From an archaeon (GTDB taxonomy: Archaea > Hydrothermarchaeota > Hydrothermarchaeia > JALTZZ01), in assembly GCA_027051165.1 (NCBI GenBank), contig JALTZZ010000011.1:5556-69555 (forward strand): 64,000 nucleotides of DNA. Reading direction: 5' to 3'. Below are positions 2,858 to 18,826 of this stretch, piece by piece. A model generated the notes under the pieces. It worked only from the letters and a program-made list of their open reading frames with translations, was not told the DNA's origin and searched no databases. Each line of letters starts with the position of its first letter. The stretch's first letter is position 1. Both the position numbers and the translations under genes were made by a program.

Positions 2858-3329
2858 ACCCAACTCCGCAACTATTGTATATCTGTTGTTTAATTCTCCG
2901 ATCTTTAATATATTGAATCCTTTCTTCCTCAGATATTTAACAACCTCTTCCTTACTTAATCTACGCTCCAACTATTCTACTCTTCGCTTTCCTCTTTTTT
3001 CCATTCAGATATTATAATTATGGCTTTATCTATTTTATCTAAGGCTTTTAGTTCAATTTCGTGAAGAGTTTATATAGAGACAATAACTTCGACATCTCTA
3101 TCCTATCTTTTGAGATATCAATAGCATAAACCTTCTTTGCATGCTCTGCTATTATATCGGTTATAACACCGGTTCCACATCCAACATCCATAACGACCTT
3201 ATTTTCCAGAAAATACATTATTTCATCAAAAAATTTCTTATACATTAGTATTCTTTCTTTATTTTCAAGAACATGAACTTTGCTCGGATCAAACCTATGT
3301 ATCATGCTGGATATAGCAAAGGTTAACAA
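2858..3329 (-). pseudogene. Class I SAM methyltransferase disrupted by at least two frameshifts
   Basis: Motif I VMDVGCGTGVITD in the 3329..3048 frame. Coding-like continuations HEIELKALDKIDKAIIIISEWKK... and LSKEEVVKYLRKKGFNILKIGELNNRYTIVAELG in two other frames down to 2858. Confidence 0.4.
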
Positions 3330-3365: not shown

Positions 3366-3406
3366 TATAGCCCGGGGCGGATTCGAACCGCCGTCTCGGG
3401 ATCCAG
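3366..3406. repeat. 41-nt direct repeat identical to the 3' portion of tRNA-Gln (18751-18791); putative att site of an integrated island
   Basis: tatagcccggggcggattcgaaccgccgtctcgggatccag occurs at both sites; the sequences diverge immediately after. Confidence 0.7.
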
Positions 3407-3909: not shown

Positions 3910-4068
3910 TTACTCTTTCTTTTCTTTCTCTTCCTCTTTTAAACCTTTCTTGAATTCTCTTTTTGTCTTTCCTAAAGCACGTGCAAGTTCAGGTATTTTA
4001 TTTGCACCAAACAGTATAATTACTACAAGCAATATAAGCAGCCATTCTCCGGCTCCTATGTTAAACAT
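3910..4068 (-). CDS. tatA: Sec-independent (Tat) translocase subunit TatA/E
   Basis: [42 protein letters not shown], the canonical TatA TM plus hinge FG plus amphipathic helix. Not in the ORF track because it is under 60 aa. Confidence 0.75.
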
Positions 4069-4118
4069 CACCTTAACCTCCTTTTGTTTTTAAATTTTTT
4101 TAATAATTATTTAATAAT

Positions 4119-4700
4119 TTAGCTAATAACTTCGAAATATTTTTCATTGAGGCACATTTTGCATACAAGGTTGTTATCAACAATCTTCATGTAGTTTTTT
4201 GGCTGAAGCTCTCCACAAATACTGCACTCGACTATTTCATCTTTTTTAAACTCTAAATTGGCTGTAATTTTCACTTTTTCCACATTGAAATACCTTTCAT
4301 CTAAATTGAGGAAGATTTTAACAAGCTTTTCTCTATCCTCTTTTGAAAGCTTTCCATTTCTATATATAAACTTTTCAACCTCCTTTGAAACCTTGCTTGC
4401 ATCTTTTTTTAGAGAAACTCTATAACCTATTTTAGTATCGTAGTTTGCAAGAGTTAGTGCAAGCTTTCCGTAATCCTTAACAATAAGGTTTAGATTACCG
4501 GGGGTAGTTCCAGCAAATGCTTGCATGGCATCTGGTATGCATACCCTTGTTTCTGCGATTCCTGTTATTCCTCTACCTCTTTTATTTGTTTTTAAATGCT
4601 TATATGCAATTTCGCACATTCTTATCCCAAGTGCTACACCGGGGCTAAGATGCCCATGGATTTTTTCAGCAAGCTTTATAGCTTCTTCTTTGCTTATCAA
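4119..4700 (-). CDS. FmdE/FwdE-family protein with C-terminal zinc ribbon
   Basis: HGHLSPGVALGIRM FwdE-like motif; C-terminal CSICG...CKMC. Confidence 0.65.
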   Translation of the reverse strand: MISKEEAIKLAEKIHGHLSPGVALGIRMCEIAYKHLKTNKRGRGITGIAETRVCIPDAMQAFAGTTPGNLNLIVKDYGKLALTLANYDTKIGYRVSLKKDASKVSKEVEKFIYRNGKLSKEDREKLVKIFLNLDERYFNVEKVKITANLEFKKDEIVECSICGELQPKNYMKIVDNNLVCKMCLNEKYFEVIS

Positions 4701-5911
4701 TACAGGTTCACCTCCACCTCTTCACCTTCTTCTAAATCTCTTTCTGTTAACATGAAGCCATCGGCTAAAACTGTTCTCGTCATTTGAGATATAAGGCTTA
4801 CTGCATATTTATCTCCCTTAGGCAATAAACGAACAGGAGAATCTACATAGCCTACTGGAAAAGCTTTTCCATCGGCAATCTTAACAAAGACTATATATGT
4901 AAATCCCTTTGTTGGTATTCTTACTTCGTGTGCTATTTTTGCTCGAATTTTTGGAAATGGAATATCTCCGTAGAAGAACGCTCTCAAAGCAAACATCATA
5001 GATATAAAAGCTCCTGCTGGCTTTCCTGGAAGGGCAAAAACAGGCTTGTTGTTAACTATACCTATAGCTAATGGTTTTCCCGGTCTCTGCTTAACCCTAT
5101 AAAGCAAAAGATCACCTTCTTCTTTTAAAACCTTTATTACATAATCCTTTCTTCCAACGCTTACACCGCCGCTTGTAACGACTGCATCGTATTCCTTTGT
5201 TCCCTCTATTATCATCTCCCTTATCTCCTCGTAGCTGTCATCGGTTATACCTAAAAAGGCTGGCTCGTGCCCCCATTTCCTCAAAAAGCTCATTATCATT
5301 GGACCATTTGTATCGTTTCTCATTCCCCTCTTTATCTCATCTCCGTTGGAAAACACTGCAACCCTCATCTTCCTATAAACCTTAACCTTCTTGATTCCTA
5401 AGCTGTGAAGAACAGCTATTTCTTGAGGTCCAATACGTCTCTTTGCCTCTATTACAACTTCACCTTCCTTTACCTCACTTCCCCTTTTTAGCACGTATGT
5501 TCCGCTCTTTATTTTTTTACCGTAGAGCAAGCTACCTTTTACTTCAGCAAGCTCAACCTTTAAAACAGCATCCGCACCTCTCGGTAGAGCGGCACCAGTT
5601 GTTATGTAGAACGCTTCTCCTTTATTAAGCTTTGTATCACTCTCATTTCCCGCATATATACTGCCAACTATCTTTAAAGGATAACTGTCAGAGCTCCTTA
5701 TTGCATAGCCATCCATCGTTGCTAAGTCGTGCTTAGGCAATGTTACTGGTGAAACTATGTCTTCTGCAAGCTCTCTATCGAGGGCTTCATCCACATTTAT
5801 CTCCTCAACTCCTCTATTGTAGTAAAATTTTTCCCTAAGTTTTTTCATAAAGCTTATTGAATCATCTATGCTAACCATCTCGTGCATGAAGCTCACCGAT
5901 AATTTCTTCAA
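4697..5911 (-). CDS. moeA: Molybdopterin molybdotransferase MoeA
   Basis: ATMDGYAIRS N-domain motif and a GGVSVG MoCF-binding domain; 404 aa. Confidence 0.8.
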   Translation of the reverse strand: MKKLSVSFMHEMVSIDDSISFMKKLREKFYYNRGVEEINVDEALDRELAEDIVSPVTLPKHDLATMDGYAIRSSDSYPLKIVGSIYAGNESDTKLNKGEAFYITTGAALPRGADAVLKVELAEVKGSLLYGKKIKSGTYVLKRGSEVKEGEVVIEAKRRIGPQEIAVLHSLGIKKVKVYRKMRVAVFSNGDEIKRGMRNDTNGPMIMSFLRKWGHEPAFLGITDDSYEEIREMIIEGTKEYDAVVTSGGVSVGRKDYVIKVLKEEGDLLLYRVKQRPGKPLAIGIVNNKPVFALPGKPAGAFISMMFALRAFFYGDIPFPKIRAKIAHEVRIPTKGFTYIVFVKIADGKAFPVGYVDSPVRLLPKGDKYAVSLISQMTRTVLADGFMLTERDLEEGEEVEVNLY

Positions 5912-6530
5912 TTATGCTCCTCTCAAGCAATATAAAACCTCGTGTAATTTTTGCAACCCCCTTATAAAAATTTACCCTCGATTCTTTCTCCATGACATCG
6001 CAGAACGTTGGTATCCATGATAGTATGTGTTCTTCTAAGAACTCCCTTTCAAAATTTAAATATTTCTTAGCTTCATTTATATTTCCTTTTATATGGGCTT
6101 CCATCTCTCTATAGCAGAGGAGTGACATGAACCTAAGTTCTGTTCCTATATAATCCTGAGGCCCTGGGTATTCATCTATTATTCCAAATCCAGCTTTAAT
6201 AAACTTTTTGAGAACTTCTATTGTAGATTTTCCCATTACTATACCTTCTCCCTTATAAACAGATTCATAAGGCGGAGGCGGACTGTAACCTTCTTTTATA
6301 CCTCTGAAGAGTCTTGTAAACTCTACCAAGAGATTATCTTCTTTCTCTTTTTCTAAAGATTTTTTTAAAATATCAATGCCTTCTTTGATTTCTCTCTCCA
6401 TTCCATTTGTATTTATCTCTTTTAGATTTTCTTTAAGTTTCTTTATAAATTCTTTATCTGGTTTTCTTAAATAGAACTCGCTCAAAAACCAATAAAATTT
6501 GCTCCTTGCTTCTGCTATCTTTTCGAACAA
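5871..6530 (-). CDS. TorD/DmsD-family redox enzyme maturation chaperone
   Basis: TRLFRGIKEGYSPPPPYESVY matches the TorD family signature; 219 aa. Confidence 0.65.
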   Translation of the reverse strand: MFEKIAEARSKFYWFLSEFYLRKPDKEFIKKLKENLKEINTNGMEREIKEGIDILKKSLEKEKEDNLLVEFTRLFRGIKEGYSPPPPYESVYKGEGIVMGKSTIEVLKKFIKAGFGIIDEYPGPQDYIGTELRFMSLLCYREMEAHIKGNINEAKKYLNFEREFLEEHILSWIPTFCDVMEKESRVNFYKGVAKITRGFILLERSIIEEIIGELHARDG

Positions 6531-6556
6531 CTACATCACCACAAAAATAAAGAGAA

Positions 6557-6976
6557 TTATTGTGCAGCGGTTCCATAGAGCTCCTTAGCTATACCTCCCT
6601 TCTTGTGGCAGCCCAAGCAGACTCCTCTGTCAACTACTCCCGGTGCTCCTCTTACTGGAACCTTATACTTGCGCTGGTATATGTAGTCTGGAGCATACTC
6701 CTTAGCTACATGGCACGTTTGACACGTTAAGCCGAGTGCATTTGCATGAATGTTGTGGTATCTCTTGCCTATATCCATGCCGTATTCCTTGCCAACGTCT
6801 ATCTCACCTTTTCTTATCTTTTCAGCAGTTTCTGCAAAAGTGAGCACCTTTATCTTTTCCACAACTTTTGGTTTTTCCTCCGGCTTTGCAGCAGCTGGCT
6901 TTTCCTCTGGCTTTTCGCATGCAGAGAAGACAAATAGAATTCCTACAAAGACAATCAACAACAGGATCTTCCTCAT
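6557..6976 (-). CDS. Membrane-anchored (lipoprotein-like) dihaem cytochrome c, NapB-like size
   Basis: Two CxxCH motifs (CQTCH, CLGCH). N-terminal signal peptide ending VFSAC with a lipobox-like cysteine. KPEEKP linker repeats. Likely real start is the ATG at 6976 with a GAGGTGA RBS; the ORF track starts at a TTG. Confidence 0.7.
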   Translation of the reverse strand: MRKILLLIVFVGILFVFSACEKPEEKPAAAKPEEKPKVVEKIKVLTFAETAEKIRKGEIDVGKEYGMDIGKRYHNIHANALGLTCQTCHVAKEYAPDYIYQRKYKVPVRGAPGVVDRGVCLGCHKKGGIAKELYGTAAQ

Positions 6977-6986
6977 CTCAATCACC

Positions 6987-7646
6987 TCATAGAAGGTAGT
7001 AAACCTGCGGTCTTGTTCCAAACTCCTTCTTTAGCTGTATAGCTCTTCTCTTTGCAATCAGCTTTGAAACTTCGCTGTTGGGATCGTCTAAGTCGCCAAA
7101 ATGTCTTGCTCTTACTGGACAAACCACTACGCAAGCTGGTGTTGATTCCTGATCGCTCCCCGGCTTTTTGCCTTCTTTAATAGCCTTCTCTATCCTGTGC
7201 CAGCAGAGTGTGCACTTCTCAGCCACTCCCGGCTTCTTTCTATGAGTCCAGTGCCTCTTTTCGTATGGTATGTTTTCATAGGGAGTTTTTTCTCTGTTTG
7301 GATACAAAGGCTTGATCTCATCTATAAAGTGAATTACGCCATAGGGACATGCTGCGATGCAGTATCTAGCCCCTTTGCACTTATCATAGTTTATTAGAAC
7401 AACTCCGTATTCGTTTTTGCTTATCGCCTTTGCTGGACAAGCTTTTACGCAAGGCGGATTTTCACAGTGCATGCAGCTTACCGGAACAAAAACCCTTCTA
7501 ACGCTTGGATACCTCCCCTGCTCATACTCGTTAACATACAACCAGTAGTTTCCCGGCTGAACGAAGTTCTCTATTTTGCAAGCAGCTACGCATGCTCTAC
7601 AACCAATGCACCTCTTTAAGTCAACAACAAGACCATATTTAACCAT
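6987..7646 (-). CDS. 4Fe-4S ferredoxin-type electron-transfer subunit of the molybdoenzyme
   Basis: Four Cys clusters (CIGCRACVAAC, CMHCENPPCVKAC, CKGARYCIAACP, CTLC...CVVVCP); 219 aa. Confidence 0.85.
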   Translation of the reverse strand: MVKYGLVVDLKRCIGCRACVAACKIENFVQPGNYWLYVNEYEQGRYPSVRRVFVPVSCMHCENPPCVKACPAKAISKNEYGVVLINYDKCKGARYCIAACPYGVIHFIDEIKPLYPNREKTPYENIPYEKRHWTHRKKPGVAEKCTLCWHRIEKAIKEGKKPGSDQESTPACVVVCPVRARHFGDLDDPNSEVSKLIAKRRAIQLKKEFGTRPQVYYLL

Positions 7647-7656
7647 TTAAACCACC

Positions 7657-10338
7657 TCACGCCTTATAAACCTTTACCTTTGTGTCGTTGAACGAGTTCA
7701 TTCCTGATATCATGTCTGGATGAAGCTCGAGAACCCAGTTTATAGCGGTGCCCTTCTTCGCATATTCTGGAAAGGCTCTCGCAAACCTTCCGTAGTGGTA
7801 GCTTACTGCAACCGTATCAGGTCTTATACCTTCTGTAAGCTTTGCAATCGCCTTTACTTTTCCAATCCTCGACTCTATCCAAACTTCATCGTTATCCTTT
7901 ATTTCGAGCTCCCTTGCGGTTTTAGTGTTTATTAGAACGTAGTTGTAGTTTGAGTCGTGCGCGACCTCTCTAAGCACTGGATAAAGTGCATCTTGGCTTG
8001 CTTGATTTCTATACATTCTTTTGTATGTTATAAGATAGAATGGATAGTCCTTAGCTTTTTTATGAGGGGTCGGGAAAGCATGCTCCTTTATCGGTATTGG
8101 TGAAAGCTTTATATCTAAGAGCCTATCCATGTTGTCTTCTTCATACCACTCTTTAAAAACTGCAGCTACTTTTGGATTCTTCTTTATAATTTCCTTAACC
8201 TTTTCCTTTGATACAACAAGATTTTCAGCGTAGAAATTCATCTTCGGCTTTCCTTTTCCTTTGAACTTCTTCTCAACACCGCTAAGATATCTTTTCTCGA
8301 CATTGAGCTTCTTTCCAACAAATGCATGCTTTATTGCATATTCAAATGGCTTTCCAGTCTTATCTTCCCATATAACCCTTACATAGTCCTTAGCTTTATA
8401 TTCTCTTCCTTTTTCAAACTTAACCTTTTTAAGACCCCACTTCTTGTTCAAGTTTTCTATATACTTCTCCATGAACCCGTTTCCAAGCCTCTTTGCAATC
8501 TCCCAAAGTATGTCCCAGTCCTGATACTTTAGGTTGTAGGGGTTTGCTACTGGCTGTCTTATAGCAGTGTGCTTTGTTCCGGGTGTCCACCTCGTTGGGC
8601 TGAAGTGCCAGCTCTCCAAGTAGCTCTTGTTTGGCAGAACTATGTCGCACATCTGTGCAACTTCGTCAAGGGCGATGCTTATAGAAACGTTGAACGTCTT
8701 CTTTAAACCTTCAAACTGCTTCTTTATGTCTGATGTTGACATAGGTCTGTTTGTTGCATAGAACATCTGCATTTCAGGCTTGTATTCTAAGCCGTATTTT
8801 TCCGGCTCAAGTGCTGTTAGCATTGGTTGCTGTGCAACGTTGTGTGTAGCGTGCGGGAAGAAAACGCTCTCAGCAAGATCAATCCTCTGTGGAGGATACT
8901 CGCACTTGCTTGGTCCCATATATTTAGGCTTCTTGTATACTCCGTGCAGTATTAAGCCGCCTACAGCATCTAAGCATCCTACGAGCATTTGAACGAGCAG
9001 AGCCGCTCTCCAGTTCTGAACGCCATACTCCTTCGCAGACAGTCCTCTGAAGCTGTGTATCGCTACTGGTCTGTATCTGAGCTCCTTTCCTTCGATGTTT
9101 ATTGTAGAGCCTATCCTTGCATTCTCTCCAAACTCTATCGCAATCTTTCTTATAGTTTCTGCTGGAACACCAGTTATTTCCTCAGCTTCCTTTAGATCTA
9201 TCTCAAATACTTCTTCCTTCCATATCCTAAAAGCAGTTTTATACTTTTTGCCATCTACAGTTACCTCTGCATCAAGCTCTATTTCCTCAGCTTCATCGTA
9301 AGTAACTGCTCTGTTTTTCTTCTTGTCCCATACCAATGGAACCTTCTTAGCTTCCTTTCCAAAGCCTACCTTCTTCTTTAAGAACTTTCCATCCTCTCCA
9401 ACCAAAAAAGGCGCATTTGTATACGTTATGAGGAAGTCTTTATCAACATAGCCGTTTTCTATTAGAACTCTCGCCATCGCTAATAAGAATACAACATCAG
9501 TCCCCGGCTTTATTGGGATCCATTCATCAGCCTTTGCTCCTAAGTTGCTCAATCTCGGCTCTACAACGACGAGCTTCATTCCCCTCTCCATAGCATCTAA
9601 GCATGCATGATCGAGCCACCTTGCCCACTGCTCCGCTTCAAAGTAGTTAGCTCCCATGTTTATAAGGTAGTTGCAGTATTCTAAGTCCGGAAGAATTCCA
9701 TGGTATCCCCAGGTTATCTCATCTGCGATGTGCCTTGCTGCCTCACATGTTGTAGTTCTATGAACGTTGTTTGGCGAACCCACAGCCTTTAGAAAAGCCT
9801 TTGTTACCTTATCCCCCATTAAATACTTTCCATGCCCCCACTGGAAAACAAACTTCCTTGGATCTTCTTCCATTATTTTCTTTAATCTTTTTGCTATTTC
9901 ATCAAAAGCTTCTTCCCAGCTTATTTCAACAAACTTTGGATCAGCATCTGGACTTTTGTCCGGATTCGTTCTCTTTAGAGGTGCCTTTATTCTGTATGGG
10001 TTATACATGTCAAATATTCCGCTTAGACCTTTTGGACAGTTGCCCCAGTTGAAGTATTCGGCTCTATTCTCATCTGGATATATTGCTCTTGCAACTCCAT
10101 CCACAACCTTAACCTTTATTCCGCAGAAGTTTACGCAAACGCAGCATGTTGTTGGAATATACCTCTCTCCTTTTAGGCTCTGCTCAAGTGCATATGCTAA
10201 ACCACTCGATTTTTCCGCTTCAGCTTTTATCTTAGCTAAATTTGCCAGAGAATTTCCCAAAGCAGCAAATGCAAGAAGTGCACCAGTTTTCTTTAGAAAC
10301 TCCCTTCGATTCATTAAAATACCATCTTTCATGCACAT
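7657..10338 (-). CDS. Tat-exported molybdopterin oxidoreductase catalytic subunit (DMSO reductase family; Psr/Phs/Ttr/Arr-type)
   Basis: Twin-arginine NRREFLKK with an A-rich h-region; CCVCVNFCG...C (C-x2-C-x3-C-x28-C) FeS motif; 893 aa. Probable true start at 10332 or 10314. Confidence 0.85.
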   Translation of the reverse strand: MCMKDGILMNRREFLKKTGALLAFAALGNSLANLAKIKAEAEKSSGLAYALEQSLKGERYIPTTCCVCVNFCGIKVKVVDGVARAIYPDENRAEYFNWGNCPKGLSGIFDMYNPYRIKAPLKRTNPDKSPDADPKFVEISWEEAFDEIAKRLKKIMEEDPRKFVFQWGHGKYLMGDKVTKAFLKAVGSPNNVHRTTTCEAARHIADEITWGYHGILPDLEYCNYLINMGANYFEAEQWARWLDHACLDAMERGMKLVVVEPRLSNLGAKADEWIPIKPGTDVVFLLAMARVLIENGYVDKDFLITYTNAPFLVGEDGKFLKKKVGFGKEAKKVPLVWDKKKNRAVTYDEAEEIELDAEVTVDGKKYKTAFRIWKEEVFEIDLKEAEEITGVPAETIRKIAIEFGENARIGSTINIEGKELRYRPVAIHSFRGLSAKEYGVQNWRAALLVQMLVGCLDAVGGLILHGVYKKPKYMGPSKCEYPPQRIDLAESVFFPHATHNVAQQPMLTALEPEKYGLEYKPEMQMFYATNRPMSTSDIKKQFEGLKKTFNVSISIALDEVAQMCDIVLPNKSYLESWHFSPTRWTPGTKHTAIRQPVANPYNLKYQDWDILWEIAKRLGNGFMEKYIENLNKKWGLKKVKFEKGREYKAKDYVRVIWEDKTGKPFEYAIKHAFVGKKLNVEKRYLSGVEKKFKGKGKPKMNFYAENLVVSKEKVKEIIKKNPKVAAVFKEWYEEDNMDRLLDIKLSPIPIKEHAFPTPHKKAKDYPFYLITYKRMYRNQASQDALYPVLREVAHDSNYNYVLINTKTARELEIKDNDEVWIESRIGKVKAIAKLTEGIRPDTVAVSYHYGRFARAFPEYAKKGTAINWVLELHPDMISGMNSFNDTKVKVYKA

Positions 10339-10960: not shown

Positions 10961-11653
10961 ATGGAAGTTGATATTCAAGAAGAACTTAACAAAGAAATAA
11001 TCAAAAATTATAGCAGCAACTGCAAGAAGGTGCTAATAGTGGATTACGATGGAGATTTAAAAAACAAACTAAAAAAGAAGCTTTCTTCTTATGGATTTAT
11101 CGTGAAAACCGTAGAAAACGGTGAGGAGGCTCTAAAAATAATAAAAAACGAAGATTTTGATCTTATAGTGGCAAATGAAATCTTACCAGTAGTTAACGGG
11201 ATTGAACTCCTTAGAACCATTAGAAAGATGAGCTTGCGAACAAAATTTATAGTTTTAGCCGAGTATCCAACAGTAGAAAGTGCTGTAGAAGCTATGAAAC
11301 TCGGTGCAAGCGAGTATATACCGAAACATGTAAAAATAAATGAAATTTTTTCAAAAATATTAAAAACGCTTGAAGAAGTTGAATTCAAAGAAATTTTTAT
11401 GAACGATCATTTAGTTAAATGCATGTTGAATCCAACAAGAAGATCCATTATATTATATCTCTTTAAAAACGACAGAGCAAAGTTTATAGATATTATGCAT
11501 GCTGTTAATATAGAAAATTCAGCAAAATTAAGTTTTCATATAAATTACCTAAAAAAACACGATGTAATTAAAAGAGATAAAGAAAACTCCTATTATCTAA
11601 CAAAAAAAGGAAAAATCATGGCAAATATTATCCTATCTTACCTCATACCATAA
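10961..11653 (+). CDS. Receiver-like domain fused to ArsR-like wHTH; phospho-acceptor Asp replaced by Asn (pseudo-receiver)
   Basis: DFDLIVANEILPVVNG where the canonical D of the receiver is N. C-terminal LNPTRRSIILYL...HINYLKKHDVIKR wHTH. Confidence 0.55.
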   Translation: MEVDIQEELNKEIIKNYSSNCKKVLIVDYDGDLKNKLKKKLSSYGFIVKTVENGEEALKIIKNEDFDLIVANEILPVVNGIELLRTIRKMSLRTKFIVLAEYPTVESAVEAMKLGASEYIPKHVKINEIFSKILKTLEEVEFKEIFMNDHLVKCMLNPTRRSIILYLFKNDRAKFIDIMHAVNIENSAKLSFHINYLKKHDVIKRDKENSYYLTKKGKIMANIILSYLIP

Positions 11654-11699
11654 AGTGATGTCTCTTAAGTTTTTATAGACATAAAACCTCATTATAATT

Positions 11700-12557
11700 A
11701 TGTATGGTATTCCAGTAATGACCAAAATAAGAAATAAGAGTCTTACGTTTATCATTCTTATTATAATACTCCTTCTATCTTATAATGTCCTAAAGCTTGG
11801 GTTTAAGGAATTAAAATTTGTGGATGGAAAAATAGCGTTTCAATGGGACATACACTACGGTCTTCTCGAAACTTACACTCACCTCTACTCTGGGACTTTT
11901 CACATTATTGCAAGTATTATAGGAATATTCTTCTTTTACAGAAGTTTTAGGGGAGCTAAATACATGTGGAATCTTATAATGCTAAGCTTTCTTACCCTTG
12001 GTCTTGTTGCTGCTGGAGAAGTCTTTGAGCACTACTTTTTAAACTACAAGGGATACAACTTCATGCACTATTTGCACATGTTAAATGCACCTTTAGGAAT
12101 GTTCTTTATCTACATGGCTATAAGGGAGTTTTATGAGGGAAAAAGAATATTTCATCCGAATTTAGGATTGTTCATCGTAATACTAACTTTTTTAGTGTCT
12201 TACATTCTTGCAGAAAATTCAAAATATATATACGACATTCGTATAGAAAAGCCGATTGTATATTTAACACTACCCCCAACGATAGTTTTTACAATACTCT
12301 TGCTATTTATAGAAGCTAAAAAAATATTTAGGGAATATGGGCTGCTCGTTATGAACATATCTGCACTTGCACTCTCCCATTCCCTTCTTGCAATCTTCAT
12401 CGTTTTTGGAAGGTATGCACATATACATCACGATGCTTGGCTGTATGTAGTAACGCATTCAATACAAAACATACTTCATGTAGCATGCGGATGTGTTATA
12501 TTAACGTTTGCAGCATGTATAAAGATCGTTCACGAAAAATTTAGAAAAATTTGCTAA
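11700..12557 (+). CDS. His-rich polytopic membrane protein of unknown function
   Basis: Roughly 7 predicted TM segments and many His (HYGLLETYTHLYSGTFH, HYFLNYKGYNFMHYLHM, HIHHDAWLY). Confidence 0.35.
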   Translation: MYGIPVMTKIRNKSLTFIILIIILLLSYNVLKLGFKELKFVDGKIAFQWDIHYGLLETYTHLYSGTFHIIASIIGIFFFYRSFRGAKYMWNLIMLSFLTLGLVAAGEVFEHYFLNYKGYNFMHYLHMLNAPLGMFFIYMAIREFYEGKRIFHPNLGLFIVILTFLVSYILAENSKYIYDIRIEKPIVYLTLPPTIVFTILLLFIEAKKIFREYGLLVMNISALALSHSLLAIFIVFGRYAHIHHDAWLYVVTHSIQNILHVACGCVILTFAACIKIVHEKFRKIC

Positions 12558-12558
12558 A

Positions 12559-12999
12559 TTAACGGTTGTTTAATATCATTCTTATATCATCTACAAATCT
12601 CTTTGCAAATCTTTCACCAAACAGTATTGAGAACTCCCTTTCTATATTTTTAAGCCTCTCCTCAACATCTCTTGAAGCTGCAATGTTTTCCCTTATAATT
12701 TTTTCTTTTCCTATTTCTCCAAGAGACTCTTTAGCAATTTCCATTAAAAGATTTTCGATTTCAACAATTTTATCGTAGATCCTCCTATCTGTTAAGCTGT
12801 ATATTCTTTTTTGTCCCCTAACTTCGCTTTTAACTATGTTGTGTTCTCTGAGCTTCTTTAGATGATGCGAGACAAGAGACTGGTTGGAATTTAGAATCTC
12901 TGAAAGCTCACCAACACTCTTTTCCCCTGATCCAAGTATTTTTACTATCTCAAGTCTGTTCTTATCGCTCATCAGTTTGAAGAATGTATGAACATTCAT
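12559..12999 (-). CDS. ArsR-family HTH regulator with C-terminal coiled-coil extension
   Basis: NRLEIVKILGSGEKSVGELSEILNSNQSLVSHHLKKLREHNIV. Confidence 0.6.
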   Translation of the reverse strand: MNVHTFFKLMSDKNRLEIVKILGSGEKSVGELSEILNSNQSLVSHHLKKLREHNIVKSEVRGQKRIYSLTDRRIYDKIVEIENLLMEIAKESLGEIGKEKIIRENIAASRDVEERLKNIEREFSILFGERFAKRFVDDIRMILNNR

Positions 13000-13259
13000 A
13001 TAAATAGCTATAAAGATTTAACTATTAAAAGAATATAGTAAAGCGAACTACTTTTAGTGAATGTGGGAGCTTTCGTGGAATTTGACCCATTTACAGTGCA
13101 ACACCTTACAATGCCTTTGCTCTTGCTCACTGGACGACGACAAACCACCCTTAAGGTTGTTAAAACAGAGCTTAAACTCCGCTATAGCTAAACTATCATA
13201 TTTGCCAGCGTTAACGTTAGGCGGAGATTTTCACCAAGCTCTTTCTTTCGCAAAGAGTC

Positions 13260-14270
13260 TTATAAAGATAGATAATTTTCGAAAATTAAGGAATAAATAT
13301 AAGCTGAGAAAGATGAGAAGAAGATTACAAGAAAAATGTATGTCAAGGAGATCTTAATGCCAGCAATTCTTGATATTGCTATGAAGTTTGGAAGACTAAC
13401 TGCAGGACCGGCTAAGAGAAGTGCAACTGCAGCACTTTTACTCATTCCAAGATCTATTAAAGATTCTGTTATGGGAACCTCCGTTAGCGTTGCAAAGTAG
13501 AAAAGAGCACCTAAAGAACCTGCTATAAGATAGCTAATAAAGTTTTCTTTCCCCAAAAATTCTTTTATAATTTCTTCTGAAGCAAAAGCCTTTATAACTC
13601 CTGCAAAAAATATTCCTATCAGTATTAGGGGGAAAATCATCCTAAAAAGGATATACGTTTCTCTTATCCAGTATATCGTTTCATCTCTTTCAAACTTCTT
13701 AAACAAAAATAAAAATATAAGGGCTAAGATTGCAAGGGAGTAGATACCCTTACCAAATATTAAAAGAAGGAAGAGAAGAAAAATTAAATAAAGATGTTTC
13801 CTCTCATAAACCTTTCCAGAAGCAGCATGGATAAATTCTCCTTTACTTTTAAAGAAAATAGATATTAAAGCTCCTATAATTATTGACATAGTTACTGCAA
13901 AGAATGCCCTGAAAAATCCTATATCTAACCCTATAACTCTTGCTGTATAAACTATTGCTAATATATTTATTGCGGGTGCTGAATATAGAAATGTAAACAA
14001 CGGGCCTATTTTTGCACCTACCCTATAGAGACCTGCAAAAAGTGGTATTACCGTGCAAGAGCAAACTGCTAAAACGGTTCCAGCTGATGCTGAGAATACA
14101 TAAGAAACATATTTTCTCCCAAAATATTTTAGCAAAACCTCTTTCCTGAAAAAAGCAGAAATTGCACCAGCAATAAAGAAAGCTGGTAGAAGGCATGTTA
14201 GAACGTGAAAAGATAAATATTCTTTGAGAGCTTCATATCCGCTTATTAAAACCTTCTCTAAAATATTCAT
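13260..14270 (-). CDS. Permease (two-cysteine predicted-permease family often found in ars operons)
   Basis: 336 aa, about 8 TM, VCSCTVIP motif. Confidence 0.45.
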   Translation of the reverse strand: MNILEKVLISGYEALKEYLSFHVLTCLLPAFFIAGAISAFFRKEVLLKYFGRKYVSYVFSASAGTVLAVCSCTVIPLFAGLYRVGAKIGPLFTFLYSAPAINILAIVYTARVIGLDIGFFRAFFAVTMSIIIGALISIFFKSKGEFIHAASGKVYERKHLYLIFLLFLLLIFGKGIYSLAILALIFLFLFKKFERDETIYWIRETYILFRMIFPLILIGIFFAGVIKAFASEEIIKEFLGKENFISYLIAGSLGALFYFATLTEVPITESLIDLGMSKSAAVALLLAGPAVSLPNFIAISRIAGIKISLTYIFLVIFFSSFSAYIYSLIFENYLSL

Positions 14271-15328
14271 ACAGCAATCACCCTTCTATTTTGAAGAAAC
14301 ATAGAAACATTTACAAGGCTTAAAAGTATGGGAACTTCAAGCAGCGGTCCTATAACAGTTGCAAAGGCTTGCATGCTGTTTATACCAAACATTCCTATAG
14401 CCACAGCAATTGCAAGCTCAAAGTCGTTGCTTGCCGCAGAGAATGCTAAGGCTGTCGCCTTTTCATGATCCGTCCTTATTATATTTGTTGCAACGAAATA
14501 AGTTATAAACCACATGATGAAGAAATAAGCAGTTAGAGGAACAGCAATTCTAAAAACATGGTATGGAAGCTCTACGATATTCCCACCTTTTAAAGAAAAC
14601 ATTATGAATATTGTGTAAAGTAACGCTACAGGTGTTATAATACTTATCCTTCTTGAAAATTCATTCTCATACCAAAAATCTCCTTTTTTTGATCTAAGAA
14701 TTTTTCTTGTTAAGAATCCAGCAATAAATGGTATTCCAAGGAATATAAAAACTGTTTTTGCAACCTCGTATATTGAGATATCAATGTAAACACTTCTAAA
14801 TATTTCAAGCTTGCTTGGAATAACGTTTAGGAAAATATAGATGTAGAAACTGTATGTTAAGATTTGAAATATGGCATTTAAGGCTACGAGACCAACTGCA
14901 AGCTCTCTATCTCCTCTTGCAAGGTCGTTCCACACAATTACCATAGCTATACATCTTGCAAGCCCAACCATGATTACACCCATAGCATATTCAGGATAAT
15001 CCCTTAGAAGCAAAGCTGCAAGGAAAAACATTAAAAAAGGACCAAATATCCAGTTTTGGAACATTGAAAATAAGAGAATCTTCTTGTTAAATAAAACGCT
15101 TCCTATTTTCTCATATTTAACCTTTGCAAGTGGAGGATACATCATAAGTATTAAACCGAGAGCTATGGGCAGTGAAGTTGTTCCTATGCTTAAAGAGCTT
15201 AGGAATTTTGAAAAGCTGGGAAAAGAATATCCAACAAATATTCCTAAAGCCATTGCACTAAAAATTTCAAGAGTGAGATACTTTTCAAACAATCTTAGTT
15301 TTGACAAAATTCTCCACCTCTCTTTCAA
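14267..15328 (-). CDS. ACR3-family arsenite efflux transporter (bile acid:Na+ symporter superfamily)
   Basis: 353 aa, about 10 TM, VIGPLLEVPILL segment typical of ACR3; adjacent to ArsR/ArsD-like genes. Confidence 0.55.
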   Translation of the reverse strand: MKERWRILSKLRLFEKYLTLEIFSAMALGIFVGYSFPSFSKFLSSLSIGTTSLPIALGLILMMYPPLAKVKYEKIGSVLFNKKILLFSMFQNWIFGPFLMFFLAALLLRDYPEYAMGVIMVGLARCIAMVIVWNDLARGDRELAVGLVALNAIFQILTYSFYIYIFLNVIPSKLEIFRSVYIDISIYEVAKTVFIFLGIPFIAGFLTRKILRSKKGDFWYENEFSRRISIITPVALLYTIFIMFSLKGGNIVELPYHVFRIAVPLTAYFFIMWFITYFVATNIIRTDHEKATALAFSAASNDFELAIAVAIGMFGINSMQAFATVIGPLLEVPILLSLVNVSMFLQNRRVIAV

Positions 15329-15584
15329 CAGCCTTTAAAACTTGATCGTATGTAGAAAATCCTTCTAAAATGATTTTATCGTTTAAAACAACGGTATTTA
15401 CCATTGTTACACCTAAGTCGAAGGCTCTTTTTGTGTTTACCTGCATTATAAACCAATCAACCTCAACGTTATACTTTTCCTCTATATACTTGCAAATTTT
15501 TTCAAGGCTTTTTCTTAAAAGCTCGTAGCTGCAAGAGCAAGAGGCAGGTTCAACGAAAACCTCTAAATAAACTCTTTTATCCAT
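15285..15584 (-). CDS. ArsD-like arsenic metallochaperone homolog
   Basis: VFVEPASCSCSYELL resembles the ArsD N-terminus FDPAMCCSTGVCG (vicinal cysteines in a thioredoxin-like fold). Confidence 0.45.
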   Translation of the reverse strand: MDKRVYLEVFVEPASCSCSYELLRKSLEKICKYIEEKYNVEVDWFIMQVNTKRAFDLGVTMVNTVVLNDKIILEGFSTYDQVLKAVEREVENFVKTKIV

Positions 15585-15829
15585 TTTTCTACTTCCTCCT
15601 CCCTTGGAACCCTGCCGCTTGTGACAACCTTTTCGTTTATAACAATTCCAGGTGTCATCATAACTCCATATTTTGCTATTTCGCTTATATCTTTTACCAT
15701 CTCAATTTTTGCATTTAATTTAAGCTTATTAACAACCTTCTCAACAATCTTCTTTGTCATGTTGCACTTTGGACAGCCTGTGCCAAGAACCTTTATCACG
15801 ATCATGTTTATACTTGAAATTTTTATCAA
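15563..15829 (-). CDS. Thioredoxin-fold redox-active disulfide protein (CPKC)
   Basis: GTGCPKCN active site; 88 aa. Confidence 0.6.
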   Translation of the reverse strand: MIKISSINMIVIKVLGTGCPKCNMTKKIVEKVVNKLKLNAKIEMVKDISEIAKYGVMMTPGIVINEKVVTSGRVPREEEVEKWIKEFI

Positions 15830-15859
15830 CTGAAATTTTTTTCAAATGTTATTTTTTTA

Positions 15860-16192
15860 ATGCTTTATGTGGAGTGCAGATTGATAGTGTTAGATGTTGA
15901 TGAAGAGGTGTTTGAAGAGAAGTGCAAAATTGTTAAGCTCTTAGCTAATCCTATAAGGCTAAAAATGGCTTATATAATGTCAAAAAGAGAAGTATGTAAC
16001 TGCGAGCTTGAAAAGCTTTTTAAAGTTGATCCAACGCTCATATCTCACCATTTAAAAAGATTTAAAGAAGCTGGTGTTTTAAAAGAGAGAAGAGAAGGTA
16101 AATGGAGAAAGTATAGAATAGATGATGAAAAAGTTAAAAAAATAATCGAAGTTTTATTTGAAGAAAATACTTCAGGAAGATTTAAACTATAA
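15860..16192 (+). CDS. arsR: ArsR/SmtB-family metalloid-responsive repressor
   Basis: EVCNCEL resembles the As(III)-binding ELCVCDL motif, followed by HTH LISHHLKRFKEAGVL. Confidence 0.7.
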   Translation: MLYVECRLIVLDVDEEVFEEKCKIVKLLANPIRLKMAYIMSKREVCNCELEKLFKVDPTLISHHLKRFKEAGVLKERREGKWRKYRIDDEKVKKIIEVLFEENTSGRFKL

Positions 16193-16202
16193 ACAACCAA
16201 CA

Positions 16203-16958
16203 TTACTTTGACGAAATGGAGACCAAAATTCCACTTACAGAATGAACTTGAACATCTTTAAATCCTACTTTCTCAAGTATCTCTCTGAATTCATCTTTTG
16301 TCATCCCAGGATGTTCCTTGAAACCCATTATCTCTACAAAGTATTTTTCGGCCCATATATTATCTGTTCTTTCAATTTCTAAGGCAACAAGAGTCCCGCC
16401 CTTCCTTAGAGCTTTTTTAAGTCGTGAAAGATAATAGATTGTGCTTGTCTCTTTCCGTTCCATTATAGTACCCACTCCTATCATAGAAATTATCTTGTCG
16501 TAAAAATTTTGCTTCAGGTTTTTTAGATCAAACTGGTAAGTTACATTAGCATCTTTCAACCATTCTTTTGTCAGTTTTGCATCTAAGGTGCAGAGGATCT
16601 TTTCACCCTTTTTGATACTAATATATCTATTTATCACATTAATGAAACGCTTTATGTAAGCGCTCCAATCACAGCAAGTAAGTTTTGTCCAGCTGGAGAG
16701 TAGCCGGCTAAGTTCCTGCACACCTTTCGGTGTTATCTTGTAAATCTTTTTCTTAGCAGCTTCCGTTCTAACGATCTCGTGGAATATAAGTCCTTTCCTC
16801 TCTAAGGAGTGAAGTGTTGGATATATGGTTCCTGGACTCTTTATATTAAGTTTTTTCATGAGTTCTACACCGCACATAGGATTTTCTCTTAAAAGAAGCA
16901 TAATTTTTGCCTGCAAACTTCCCTTGATTTCTGTATCAGCAAATATCATATCGATCAC
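16203..16958 (-). CDS. wHTH (PadR/ArsR-like) fused to a small SAM-methyltransferase-like domain
   Basis: N-terminal GVELMKKLNIKSPGTIYPTLHSLERKGLI; C-terminal MIGVGT...GGTLVALEIE Rossmann-like. Confidence 0.4.
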   Translation of the reverse strand: MIDMIFADTEIKGSLQAKIMLLLRENPMCGVELMKKLNIKSPGTIYPTLHSLERKGLIFHEIVRTEAAKKKIYKITPKGVQELSRLLSSWTKLTCCDWSAYIKRFINVINRYISIKKGEKILCTLDAKLTKEWLKDANVTYQFDLKNLKQNFYDKIISMIGVGTIMERKETSTIYYLSRLKKALRKGGTLVALEIERTDNIWAEKYFVEIMGFKEHPGMTKDEFREILEKVGFKDVQVHSVSGILVSISSK

Positions 16959-17076
16959 CGATAAATTGGGTAAATTTTATATAGCATTTTATCGACAATA
17001 ACGATATCGGTAGTATCGATAATATTACGTTCAGAAAGAACGAGAAGCCAAGTAGCAAACAAAACAGGTGTAAACG

Positions 17077-17430
17077 ATGGAAGAGTTTCATTGTAACTGT
17101 GCATCTTGTGGTAGATTACCTGAGCAGAAAAAAGGAGTACTTAACCTATGGGTAGAGTCTAAAGATGGCATGCTATGCGAGAATTGCTGGAAAAGAGGGA
17201 TTGATATGTTGAAAGCTTCGGCTATACCGGTGAAAAGAAAATATGAGGTGAAGGAAGCTTTCTGTTGCTTCTGTGTGCTCTGCGGCAGAGCACCTCCCGA
17301 TCCAAAGGTTAAGATATGGGTCGAAACAGAGTTCGGTTGTCTTTGTGAGATCTGCATGAAAAGAATAATGAGAAAAGGTATTGAACGGGAGATAAAGAAA
17401 ATGTTAGGGGGTGCTGAAAATGGTTGTTAA
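17077..17430 (+). CDS. Tandemly duplicated C4 zinc-ribbon protein
   Basis: Two repeats CxxCG(R)xP...W(V)E(T/S)xxGxLCExC... Confidence 0.5.
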   Translation: MEEFHCNCASCGRLPEQKKGVLNLWVESKDGMLCENCWKRGIDMLKASAIPVKRKYEVKEAFCCFCVLCGRAPPDPKVKIWVETEFGCLCEICMKRIMRKGIEREIKKMLGGAENGC

Positions 17431-17701
17431 GGTGCAGATCTTTGTAACCCCAACCTGTCCAAGTTGCGAACCTGTTTTTGAGGAAACTTTCAGAGTGGTT
17501 GAAGAGGTCAGAAGAAAATTAGATATAGAAATTGATGTGGAAAAGATTGATGTAACTAAGAAAGAAAACTTGAAGCTGGCTCTAAAGTATGGGGTTAAAT
17601 CCGTGCCTACAATTGTAGTGTGTGGAAAGGAAGTAATAAGAGGTGTTCCAAATAAAGACACCCTTATAAAGATTATTAGAAAATGTTCAGGTTTTGTGTA
17701 A
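17420..17701 (+). CDS. Glutaredoxin/thioredoxin-like small redox protein (CPSC)
   Basis: VTPTCPSCEP active site; GGGGGTG RBS 7 nt upstream of the ATG at 17420. Confidence 0.65.
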   Translation: MVVKVQIFVTPTCPSCEPVFEETFRVVEEVRRKLDIEIDVEKIDVTKKENLKLALKYGVKSVPTIVVCGKEVIRGVPNKDTLIKIIRKCSGFV

Positions 17702-17946: not shown

Positions 17947-18421
17947 CTAAATCTGATATCTTTTCCTCAATTCTTTTTTAATCTCATCTAAGCTTTTACC
18001 CTTAAGTAATTCCTCAACAGCCTTTGTATCCAAAGCTAAAAACTTCTCAGACTTAAGACCATATATTATAAAATCCCTATCGTTAGTCCATATCGGTATA
18101 TTAAGCTTCAAAGCCAATGCAATAAAAGGAGAATCCTTAACATCGAAATTCTTCGCAATTTCATAAGCTTCATTTAATTTATCTTTATAGTAGAACTCTG
18201 GTATCACCTTCAAAACCTTTGGGAACTTCTGTGTCAGGATATAAAGTATCTGATCTTCCGATAAAGAAATTTTGTCTTATTTCGTAAAATATATAAGCAG
18301 GAACATATAGGGATAATCTTCTGCCAAATATAAACCTCTTAATCTTTAAACTCTTTATTAAAGCAGAAACGATAATATTCGTATCAACTACAAGTCTAAC
18401 ATTTTCTCGATTTTTTTCCAT
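17947..18421 (-). pseudogene. vapC: PIN-domain toxin VapC with a single-nt frameshift
   Basis: N-terminal VVDTNIIVSAL (ORF 18185..18421) and C-terminal SPFIALALKLNIPIWTNDRDF (ORF 17947..18213). Upstream of ORF2 the same frame reads coding-like SEDQILYILTQKFPKVLKV, placing the shift near 18285. Confidence 0.55.
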
Positions 18422-18609
18422 GCTCTCTCCTTTATATTTTCACTTATTTTCTCAACTTCATCATCTGATATTCTGGATTCCTCTAAAGACCTTTCCCAGA
18501 TAGCATCTATAATTAGGTCGTGTAAAATTTCATTTATTTTTTCTTTCAACAAGTTTTCTGACTTTTCATCTATCCACTCAGGAACCTCTATTGTAATCGT
18601 CTTAGGCAT
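18388..18609 (-). CDS. Putative antitoxin-like small protein upstream of vapC
   Basis: 73 aa acidic protein overlapping the vapC start; no recognisable domain by eye. Confidence 0.3.
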   Translation of the reverse strand: MPKTITIEVPEWIDEKSENLLKEKINEILHDLIIDAIWERSLEESRISDDEVEKISENIKERAWKKIEKMLDL

Positions 18610-18750: not shown

Positions 18751-18791
18751 TATAGCCCGGGGCGGATTCGAACCGCCGTCTCGGGATCCAG
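18751..18791. repeat. Direct repeat partner (attL/attR) within and adjacent to tRNA-Gln
   Basis: Identical 41 nt to 3366-3406. Confidence 0.7.
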
Positions 18792-18826
18792 AGTCCCGAA
18801 TGATTGACCAGCTACACCACCGGGCT
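18753..18826 (-). tRNA. tRNA-Gln (anticodon CUG)
   Basis: Reverse complement AGCCCGGTGGTGTAGCTGGTCAATCATTCGGGACTCTGGATCCCGAGACGGCGGTTCGAATCCGCCCCGGGCTA folds as a cloverleaf: 7-bp acceptor stem, anticodon loop CTCTGGA, T-loop GGTTCGAATCC. No encoded CCA. Confidence 0.85.

Follow-up and report, generated by a model that had tools for sequence, protein, structure and literature searches.

A window of 64,000 nucleotides (64 kb, the whole stretch of DNA that was analyzed) from a deep-sea vent archaeon of the Hydrothermarchaeota was examined, in which a preliminary description had recognized an arsenic-resistance-like gene cluster next to a molybdoenzyme. The cluster is genuine, with a bona fide ACR3 exporter, an ArsP-family permease, and an ArsR regulator that carries Cys-X-Cys at the classical alpha-3 As(III) site. 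Judged from sequence and predicted structure, the locus appears to be a real, mostly ordinary arsenic-efflux system accompanied by two new accessory families. Our results favor a division of the region into three independent units instead of one. Unit A (13260-16192) is probably an arsenic or thiophile efflux operon under an ArsR repressor, unit B (16203-17701) is rather likely to be a separate, autoregulated PadR module, and unit C, a cysteine-free gene of the ArsR family, would belong to a strain-variable molybdoenzyme segment and is probably not an arsenic sensor. The core of the system (ArsR, ACR3, the ArsP-family permease, and an MTH895-type thioredoxin) brings nothing new to arsenic biology. 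The two accessory families, a rare CxC thioredoxin-fold protein and a PadR-methyltransferase-like fusion with a cross-phylum operator, are new variants worth modest follow-up.

All the open reading frames (ORFs) described earlier are present where they had been placed, and the motifs EVCNCEL and VFVEPASCSCSYELL were found exactly as quoted. A metagenome scaffold from ENA (REYS20-1_SAMN12239309 scaffold_408, here L009; other loci are likewise given L numbers) matches the window at 100% over 20.3 kb, and its gene calls supplied the starts of the genes coding for the 80-, 99-, 346-, and 336-amino-acid (aa) proteins of the ars operon. The DNA is AT-rich, with a GC content of 0.32-0.35 around the ars and PadR region and 0.39-0.43 over the molybdoenzyme genes (about 5-10 kb).

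The ars operon and its repressor

Four overlapping minus-strand genes make up the operon, in the order trx, the CxC protein gene, acr3, and the permease gene, and arsR is divergent from trx across 54 bp. The acr3 gene (14267-15307; the longest ORF runs to 15328) overlaps its neighbors by 23 nt on the upstream side and 4 nt on the downstream side. It codes for a 346-aa arsenite efflux permease that passes the equivalog profile TIGR00832 with 419.9 bits against a cutoff of 282.8 (protein residues 11-341) and also scores 197.6 bits on SBF, so that the exporter previously called a probable ACR3 is borne out. Mutagenesis of Acr3 has reportedly shown that a conserved cysteine in transmembrane segment 4 (R-C-I-A-M) and a glutamate in transmembrane segment 9 (E-V-P) are needed for transport. 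We take these two residues to be Cys126 in GLARCIAMV, which is the single cysteine of the window protein, and Glu331 within GPLLEVP.

The second permease of the earlier description also holds up. This 336-aa protein (13260-14270, minus strand) matches the ArsP_1 profile PF03773 over its full length (216.5 bits, residues 14-327), and carries a Cys70-Ser-Cys72 pair in the membrane. The CSC motif is the most conserved one of the SaoE and SO_0444 branches of the ArsP family (Haft & Gwadz, 10.1101/2022.07.06.499078). Scores for the window permease are far under the equivalog cutoffs of both branches, namely 116 bits for SaoE (cutoff 325) and 99 bits for SO_0444 (cutoff 300). The characterized ArsP of Campylobacter jejuni exports trivalent organoarsenicals (review). 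Neither ACR3 nor the ArsP-family permease had sequence relatives among solved structures.

The first gene of the operon, trx (15563-15805, minus strand; the ORF extends to 15829), codes for an 80-aa protein of the MTH895/ArsE family (redox-active disulfide protein 2). It is the one clear case by profile among the thioredoxin-fold proteins proposed earlier, with 94.5 bits on Thioredoxin_3 and 102 bits on TIGR00412 (MTH895/ArsE family, cutoff 62). Its CPKC motif and cis-Pro are both present, and its gene overlaps the CxC gene by 22 nt. The protein is ordinary and shows no notable difference from MTH895/ArsE, a family recognized earlier as a determinant in ars operons (Castillo & Saier 2010).

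The regulator gene arsR (15860-16192, plus strand) codes for a 110-aa ArsR/SmtB protein (103 aa in some gene calls) that scores 42.4 bits on HTH_5 and 75.1 bits on NF033788 (cutoff 55) and has Cys46-X-Cys48 within EVCNCEL at alpha-3. This Cys-X-Cys is kept in every module-linked ArsR that was aligned (L010, L005, L100, L102, L020, L025). In the arsR/trx intergenic region, two tandem 16-nt imperfect palindromes at 15814-15845 (TTGAAA-N4-TATCAA and CTGAAA-N4-TTTCAA) form a candidate operator to which ArsR likely binds, and the tandem arrangement is retained in the 70%-identical locus L005/L004.

Control of ACR3 and an ArsP-family permease by ArsR has been described before (review). The C. jejuni-type ars operon (arsP-arsR-arsC-acr3) and archaeal or bacterial arsR-acr3 operons are similar to the window in their Cys-pair ArsR and in bringing ACR3 and an ArsP-family permease together. 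In contrast to the C. jejuni-type operon, the window operon is without ArsC, has two thioredoxin-fold genes ahead of the transporters, and includes a permease that passes no characterized equivalog. A phmmer screen of all window ORFs gave no credible ArsC/LMWP, ArsA, or ArsM-like gene; the sole ArsA match was a P-loop ORF at 57639-58391 (E = 9e-4, 12 bits).

A rare CxC thioredoxin-fold protein

The second gene of the operon (15285-15584, minus strand) codes for a 99-aa thioredoxin-fold protein with Cys16-Ser-Cys18 at the N-terminus of helix 1 and Asn63 in place of the cis-Pro. Profile searches gave weak thioredoxin matches alone (MJ0307 family, E = 3.9e-5) and no family assignment, and the best sequence match among solved structures was the MJ0307 thioredoxin 1fo5 (E = 8e-4). 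In the alignment with 1fo5, Cys18 pairs with the second Cys of CPHC, a motif reduced to CxC in the window protein, and Asn63 stands opposite the cis-proline (VPT) of the thioredoxin. The AlphaFold model (AF2, family alignment), with a predicted local distance difference test score (pLDDT) of 90.7, has the minimal thioredoxin topology b-a-b-a-b-b-a, in which the CxC starts helix 1. There is no third Cys nearby, and Cys31 is not conserved. Because both the CxxC spacing and the cis-proline are lost, the protein is unlikely to be an oxidoreductase.

The protein had previously been compared with the N-terminus of ArsD, a claim that our results do not sustain. It did not match the ArsD hidden Markov models (HMMs) PF06953 and NF033727 at E <= 0.1, and a Foldseek search of the model against the PDB retrieved ordinary thioredoxins; MTH895 ranked 11th, and there were zero ArsD entries in the top 50. 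The thioredoxin fold is common to many families and is not diagnostic of ArsD. ArsD and the 99-aa protein are alike in their small thioredoxin fold, their place in an ars operon, their cysteines at the N-terminus of helix 1, and the proposed hand-over of a thiolate-bound metalloid. However, ArsD has Cys12-Cys13-x4-Cys18 and ArsA as its partner, whereas the 99-aa protein has CxC and Asn for cis-Pro and no ArsA is present in the window. On the HMM results, the generic thioredoxins found by Foldseek, and the missing ArsA, identity with ArsD is ruled out.

The nearest analogue described so far is SaoT/SaoE, where a CSC ArsP-family exporter likewise stands beside an MJ0307-like thioredoxin-fold protein with an altered active-site motif, and the altered motif of SaoT suggests metal contact and not redox chemistry (10.1101/2022.07.06.499078). 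The differences are that the window protein has CxC instead of CxCC/CxUC, with no selenocysteine, that there are no ABC importer or MerB-like genes, and that the setting is an archaeal host with ArsR and ACR3 as neighbors. The 99-aa protein did not match the SaoT model NF040730; the 88-aa thioredoxin ORF (15563-15829) scored 23.7 bits on this model (cutoff 65).

The CxC family is tiny, with 9 matches at E <= 1e-3 in 1.84 billion representatives and 22 clusters in 5.8 billion proteins, and none of its members is named or has a Pfam domain. No carrier was found among GTDB species representatives with the close CxC alignment, no homologue in the plasmid collection, and a metagenome scan for the family returned two loci, one of them already known. 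The pattern C[SAH]C is present in 17 of the 23 sequences of the family alignment, which also contains a distinct SPC subgroup. Comparison by hhalign with a CC-motif Trx_3/ArsD-like family of Bathyarchaeia, described below, was weak (E = 0.0026, probability 12%), and the two families were kept separate.

The gene order around the CxC gene differs among loci. It is trx-cxc-acr3-arsP in the window, trx-cxc-arsP with no ACR3 in L004/L005, arsR-trx-arsP-cxc in L100, and arsR-arsP-trx-cxc-acr3-like in L102, where the last product scores 252 bits on the ACR3 model, slightly under the cutoff; in L104 the C-terminus of arsP is followed by cxc. The set keeps its composition while the order shifts, suggesting that the module is built around the permease and not around ACR3. 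In addition, the position of the CxC at the active site, beside a CSC permease and a CxC repressor, suggests metalloid ligand exchange. We propose, with less than even confidence, that the CxC protein might carry out ligand exchange of a thiol-bound metalloid, being ArsD-like in action without being ArsD.

These arrangements also bear on a different interpretation, according to which the trx/CxC/ArsP set is a general efflux system for soft metals or chalcogens (Cu, Zn, Cd, Hg, Se, Te), ACR3 is a mere insertion of this lineage, and the primary substrate is something other than arsenic. The module does occur without ACR3 in L004/L005 and L100, but ACR3 or an ACR3-like protein joins it in two independent arrangements, those of the window and of L102 (252 bits). 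Similarly, the permease scores best in NCBIfam on SaoE and the Cu/Zn exporter SO_0444 (both far under cutoff), whereas the characterized ArsP exports trivalent organoarsenicals (review). The analogous pairing of SaoE (CSC) with SaoT, for which heavy-metal handling has been proposed (10.1101/2022.07.06.499078), is in line with soft-metal efflux; the linked regulator, however, always has the ArsR-type CxC at the alpha-3 As(III) site. We consider a primary role in soft-metal efflux to be unlikely, and arsenic or a related thiophile to be the more plausible substrate of unit A.

The PadR module and its predicted operator

A 248-aa protein encoded at 16203-16949 (minus strand; ORF to 16958) joins a PadR winged helix-turn-helix (wHTH) domain to a degenerate class-I-methyltransferase-like domain. 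The N-terminus matches PF03551 PadR with 49 bits (cutoff 27), and profile matches to solved PadR proteins reach 3e-9, with only the PadR half matching at the sequence level. The AlphaFold (AF2) model (pLDDT 79.8) contains the wHTH, two linker helices, and a six-stranded Rossmann-like domain. The best Foldseek matches were the winged-helix plus class I O-methyltransferase enzymes RedM, DsyB, and Rv2258c (E ~1e-10, TM 0.35-0.44), and the likeness to these is at the fold level only. The wHTH-methyltransferase fusion reported earlier is therefore correct as a description of the architecture, by profile for the PadR half and by AlphaFold and Foldseek for the class I methyltransferase fold.

An alignment of the 20 cluster representatives found for the family, each of ~248 aa, shows no variation at Cys29, Cys95, and Asp97. 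At least 90% of members have Cys96, and a stretch E-x-E-(K/R)-T-D-N is fixed or almost so. The motif I position reads (K)ILCTLDxxxxK (ILCTLDAKLT) and is glycine-free across the family. No Methyltransf or ArsM Pfam model matched at E <= 0.1, and NCBIfam gave only a weak match (MpqE, 6.6e-4). Alignment by hhalign with the ArsM-like methyltransferase of a Bathyarchaeia ars island covered only beta2-beta5 (E = 0.049) and excluded motif I. In a check for the ArsM cysteines, the methyltransferase-like domain was found to have Cys123 alone, which is Ser in several members, and the invariant cysteines sit outside this domain, in the wHTH and the linker. Without a Gly-rich S-adenosylmethionine (SAM) loop, an ArsM HMM match, or catalytic cysteines in the domain, identity with ArsM is ruled out, and the fusion is probably not an enzyme. 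Of the two suggestions made before, a divergent ArsM-type enzyme or a SAM-sensing regulator, the first is thus dropped, and a sensing regulator fits better, with the SAM part in question.

With the PadR repressors 5h20, 4esb, and 5x11 the fusion shares the PadR wHTH and a gene adjoining palindromic sites, but a glycine-less class-I-methyltransferase-like C-terminal domain is not in the described PadR subfamilies. ArsRM, a fusion of ArsR and ArsM (PMC10190100), is similar in joining a wHTH to a methyltransferase fold in an arsenic context; in contrast to it, the window fusion has a PadR and not an ArsR wHTH, and no ArsM signature. The plasmid collection contained only generic PadR N-terminal domains. 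In the literature, with subscription journals outside the scope, we found neither an account of the CxC family nor one of a PadR-methyltransferase-like regulator, whether in connection with arsenic or with archaea. According to work from the Rosen laboratory, the As(III) sites of AfArsR and CgArsR1 are reportedly Cys95-Cys96-Cys102 and Cys15-Cys16-Cys55, respectively. The vicinal pair and single Cys of the PadR fusion presumably recall these atypical sites. A vicinal Cys-Cys with a distant Cys near ars-type genes is common to all three, whereas the regulator family differs (PadR) and the site in the fusion is a predicted one.

A predicted PadR-type operator/promoter lies at 16949-17025, where TATCGR/YCGATA palindromes flank a TATA box; it includes a 40-nt near-palindrome at 16986-17025 (20-nt arms, 80% complementary). 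Loci of Hydrothermarchaeota, Bathyarchaeia, Methanomassiliicoccales, and Thorarchaeota have one architecture in common over the 80-130 nt that precede the fusion gene, namely TATCGR/YCGATA palindromes (for example, TATCGGTATTACCGATA in L020) upstream of the TATA box and another between the TATA box and the start codon. Half-sites occur 1-6 times per 126 nt upstream of the fusion, compared with 0.08-0.29 expected from each locus, which is a 10- to 70-fold enrichment. No other such inverted repeat was found in the rest of the 64-kb window outside 16949-17025, and for this reason the element was rejected as a control element of the ars operon. A conserved operator that is unique to its locus speaks for an autoregulator that works on its promoter and the divergent operon and is independent of the ArsR operon. 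The footprint is established by phylogenetic conservation, and the PadR fusion is the putative protein that binds it.

The first gene divergent from the PadR fusion (17077-17430, plus strand) codes for a Cys-rich protein of 117 aa; it has 13 cysteines and two repeats that resemble zinc ribbons, CNCxxCG...CxxC and CCFCxLCG...CLCxxC. Same-start orthologues are present in L020, L016, L013, and L010, and one gene caller shortened the protein to 74 aa. It had no NCBIfam match and only a weak Pfam match to DUF4428 (E = 0.013, below cutoff). The second divergent gene (17420-17701, plus strand; ORF listed from 17411) codes for a 93-aa MJ0307-type thioredoxin with CPSC and cis-Pro, which scores 46.3 bits on Thioredoxin_3 and 69.7 bits on TIGR00411, under its cutoff of 92.75. 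The Cys-rich protein and the CPSC thioredoxin are the divergent partners of the fusion throughout a hydrothermal clade (window, L010, L020, L016, L013), except that the thioredoxin is not in L013. L020, a Candidatus Hydrothermarchaeota metagenome-assembled genome of a sister species, is the closest GTDB species representative with the PadR fusion (73% identity). Here six genes with 4-bp overlaps (5485-7918) form an operon divergent from the fusion and code for a 97-aa membrane protein, an 85-aa protein, the Cys-rich protein, the thioredoxin, ArsP_1, and ArsR(CVC). By eye, a look-alike of a CDF-type cation exporter is located downstream of the fusion in this genome.

The partners were surveyed at 19 loci of GTDB species with a full-length fusion homologue (Hydrothermarchaeota, Bathyarchaeia, Thorarchaeota, Methanomassiliicoccales). 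Twelve of the 19 have a half-size ArsA/Get3-family ATPase (245 bits on TIGR00345, 254 bits on ArsA_ATPase) and, just after it, a Trx_3 protein of 110 aa in which Cys-Cys is invariant, and in 11 loci this pair is directly divergent from the PadR fusion. Among the 12 loci, LMWP-type ArsC is present in four, ArsR together with an ArsM-like methyltransferase in two, and ACR3 in one. The pair is found in L022-L029, L032, L034, L037, and L038 (e.g., L025, 6664-7909), which are loci of Bathyarchaeia, Methanomassiliicoccales, and Thorarchaeota, and its Trx_3 protein has the invariant motif Cys-Cys-x-Pro. On the ArsD models the CC-motif Trx_3 protein scores 17-19 bits, below cutoff, and against ArsD structures its family reaches only E = 0.09-1.5. 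By profile scores it stands between thioredoxin and ArsD and may be an archaeal equivalent of ArsD. These Bathyarchaeia proteins beside a half-size ArsA are nearer to ArsD than the 99-aa CxC protein is, at a sub-cutoff 18 bits.

The molybdoenzyme segment and the proposed mechanism

The preliminary description counted two ArsR regulators in the cluster. Both are indeed ArsR/SmtB-family wHTH proteins, but the second, of 146 aa and with a C-terminal helical extension (12559-12999, minus strand), is without Cys. It scores 57.9 bits on HTH_5 and 80.2 bits on NF033788 (cutoff 55), and reads KSVGEL at the alpha-3 position. Since there is no cysteine anywhere in the protein, it cannot be a thiolate-based As(III) sensor. 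The gene lies on the molybdoenzyme side of a breakpoint and is not present in the strain variants L010 and L001; lacking Cys and standing on the variable side, it was rejected as a second ars regulator. The breakpoint was seen in the L010 (5614-10891) and L001 contigs, which are 98% identical to the window from tRNA-Gln to 13291, in the last codons of arsP. Past ~13291 both run into housekeeping genes (NikR, TIM, FBPase, DHOD, and GAPDH) that are not in the window. The breakpoint, left by a rearrangement or an indel, separates the ars operon from the molybdoenzyme block. Since the strain variants keep the ars operon and diverge at ~13291, the two blocks do not always travel together.

The cluster had also been placed inside a genomic island. 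An exact 41/41-nt direct repeat (0 expected by chance) is formed by 18751-18791, the 3' half of tRNA-Gln(CTG) (18753-18826, minus strand; ARAGORN and Rfam), and an att-like displaced copy of this half at 3366-3406 (plus strand), 15.4 kb from the tRNA gene. The repeats bracket the molybdoenzyme, the ars operon, the PadR module, and a split PIN gene, in agreement with an island; the part that does not stand is the unity of its content, as the strain variants separate the ars operon from the molybdoenzyme block. The ORF lists contain no integrase-sized ORF near either repeat, and no search with integrase HMMs was made. Directly beside the left copy lies a truncated piece of a class I methyltransferase (3048-3329). 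Beside the tRNA, at 17947-18609, a PIN_2 toxin gene is split into overlapping ORFs of 88 and 78 aa, with an upstream 73-aa ORF as a possible antitoxin; this region is probably a decayed toxin-antitoxin pair.

The molybdoenzyme belongs to a Psr/Phs/Arr-related clade. Its molybdenum subunit scores 249 bits on PhsA (cutoff 694) and 201 bits on ArrA NF041714 (cutoff 1600), and the best PDB sequence match is ArrA 6cz7 with 164 bits, followed by PsrA 2vpw with 110 bits. Opposite RGRY of 6cz7 the subunit reads WGHG, which resembles FGHG of PsrA, and the residues around the Mo-ligand Cys differ. We take (R/K)GRY to be the ArrA active-site stretch. For the Fe-S subunit, the best NCBIfam match is ArrB with 171 bits (cutoff 450). 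Arsenate respiration by this enzyme is not supported, and the earlier proposal of a metalloid respiration unit fails on the ArrA score, the WGHG motif, and the strain variability of the block.

In its full form, that proposal united an ArsD chaperone, a divergent ArsM, and an arsenate-respiring molybdoenzyme in one respiration and detoxification island. The N-terminal motif of the 99-aa protein resembles ArsD, which too has a thioredoxin fold, yet neither ArsD nor ArsM HMMs matched, SAM motif I is lost, and no ArsA is in the window. ArrA 6cz7 and ArrB are the best matches of the two enzyme subunits in the PDB and NCBIfam, respectively, but PhsA scores higher than ArrA on the first of them. The tRNA-half repeats bracket both blocks, whereas the GC content of the molybdoenzyme block (0.39-0.43) departs from the 0.32-0.35 of the ars and PadR region, and the block is missing from 98%-identical strain variants that retain the ars operon. 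We regard the single-island interpretation as highly improbable.

Within the molybdoenzyme block, 6557-10338 (and 3910-6530) code for a Tat-exported DMSO-reductase-family enzyme, a 4Fe-4S subunit, and a membrane-anchored subunit with two CxxCH heme motifs; a TorD-like chaperone, MoeA, an FwdE-like protein, and TatA are encoded as well. At 10961-12557, also in the strain-variable block, a response regulator fused to a DUF7347-type wHTH is followed by a 285-aa polytopic membrane protein without a family match.

For the three units together, the explanation that we favor, and hold to be reasonably probable, is as follows. Without metalloid, an ArsR dimer would occupy the tandem palindromes of the 54-bp divergent promoter; As(III) bound to Cys46 and Cys48 would release ArsR, and the four overlapping genes would then be expressed. 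ACR3, by family membership, would export arsenite. The ArsP-family permease, going by the behavior of its family, would export a second thiol-reactive species by means of its CSC pair, with trivalent organo- or thio-arsenicals as the likeliest substrates. Both small thioredoxin-fold proteins would serve the permease and not ACR3, because the set of ArsR(CxC), MTH895-type thioredoxin, ArsP_1, and CxC protein recurs in varied order with or without ACR3. The CPKC thioredoxin would keep thiols reduced, and the CxC protein would hold the metalloid by two thiolates and pass it to the permease by ligand exchange, as in the ArsD-ArsA pair but free of an ATPase. In unit B, the PadR fusion would bind the TATCGR/YCGATA palindromes around the TATA box and control itself and the Cys-rich/thioredoxin operon. 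It would probably sense a thiol-reactive metalloid or an oxidant via Cys29 and the Cys95-Cys96 pair in a flexible linker, and its glycine-less methyltransferase-like domain would be a dimerization or ligand module and not an enzyme.

Several observations argue against this explanation. The phmmer screen found no arsenate reductase in the ars operon or anywhere else in the window. PF03773 also holds Cu/Zn exporters (SO_0444) and SaoE, and the window permease passes no equivalog. One CxC member (L101) and one SPC member (L103) are not ars-linked, and the CxC pair could be a redox centre of the disulfide isomerase type. In the model of the PadR fusion, the pLDDT is below 50 at residues 91-96, around Cys95 and Cys96, and a geometry for the three-Cys site is thus not given. 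The degenerate domain may bind SAM after all, doubtful as this ligand is, and a disulfide-stress switch fits the signal of the fusion equally as well as a metalloid does. Also contrary is that the divergent partners of the fusion are thioredoxins, the 13-Cys protein, or Get3-like ATPases, as would be expected if the small thioredoxin-fold proteins and the PadR fusion formed a thiol-redox stress system that lies near ars genes since arsenite, too, depletes thiols. Invariant cysteines typical of redox switches and, in L016, DsbD-like and thioredoxin genes downstream of the fusion agree with such a system. It is harder to reconcile with the CxC protein, which has neither the cis-Pro nor the CxxC spacing that thioredoxin chemistry of the classical kind requires and which tracks ArsP_1 permeases and not reductases. 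Moreover, no thioredoxin-dependent ArsC is present in the window to receive the reductant, while several Bathyarchaeia loci join the PadR fusion to ArsC-type LMWP, ArsR, ACR3, and ArsM-like genes. A thiol-redox system unrelated to metalloid binding seems improbable to us, more so than soft-metal efflux.

The analysis corrects the annotation of the window, which has no ArsD, no ArsM, and no demonstrable arsenate respiration. Beyond this, ArsP-family permeases are widespread, and their substrates and the delivery of these substrates are poorly understood; the CxC protein is a concrete and easily purified candidate for the hand-over step. Likewise, very few archaeal transcription factors have a known operator together with a plausible signal, and the cross-phylum footprint and consistent target genes of the PadR-methyltransferase-like family make its regulon and ligand testable. 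We put forward, as a speculative joint proposal, that CxC proteins are thiolate carriers for ArsP-family permeases and that PadR fusions are pan-archaeal sensors of metalloid or thiol stress. Under this proposal, the CxC proteins may have evolved from MJ0307-type thioredoxins by losing the CxxC spacing and the cis-proline. The PadR sensors may use the operator TATCGGT-N3-ACCGATA across Hydrothermarchaeota, Bathyarchaeia, Methanomassiliicoccales, and Thorarchaeota, and their targets may be pairs of half-size ArsA and an ArsD-like protein or operons of the Cys-rich protein and thioredoxin. If true, it would add new components to archaeal metalloid handling and an ATPase-independent counterpart of ArsD.

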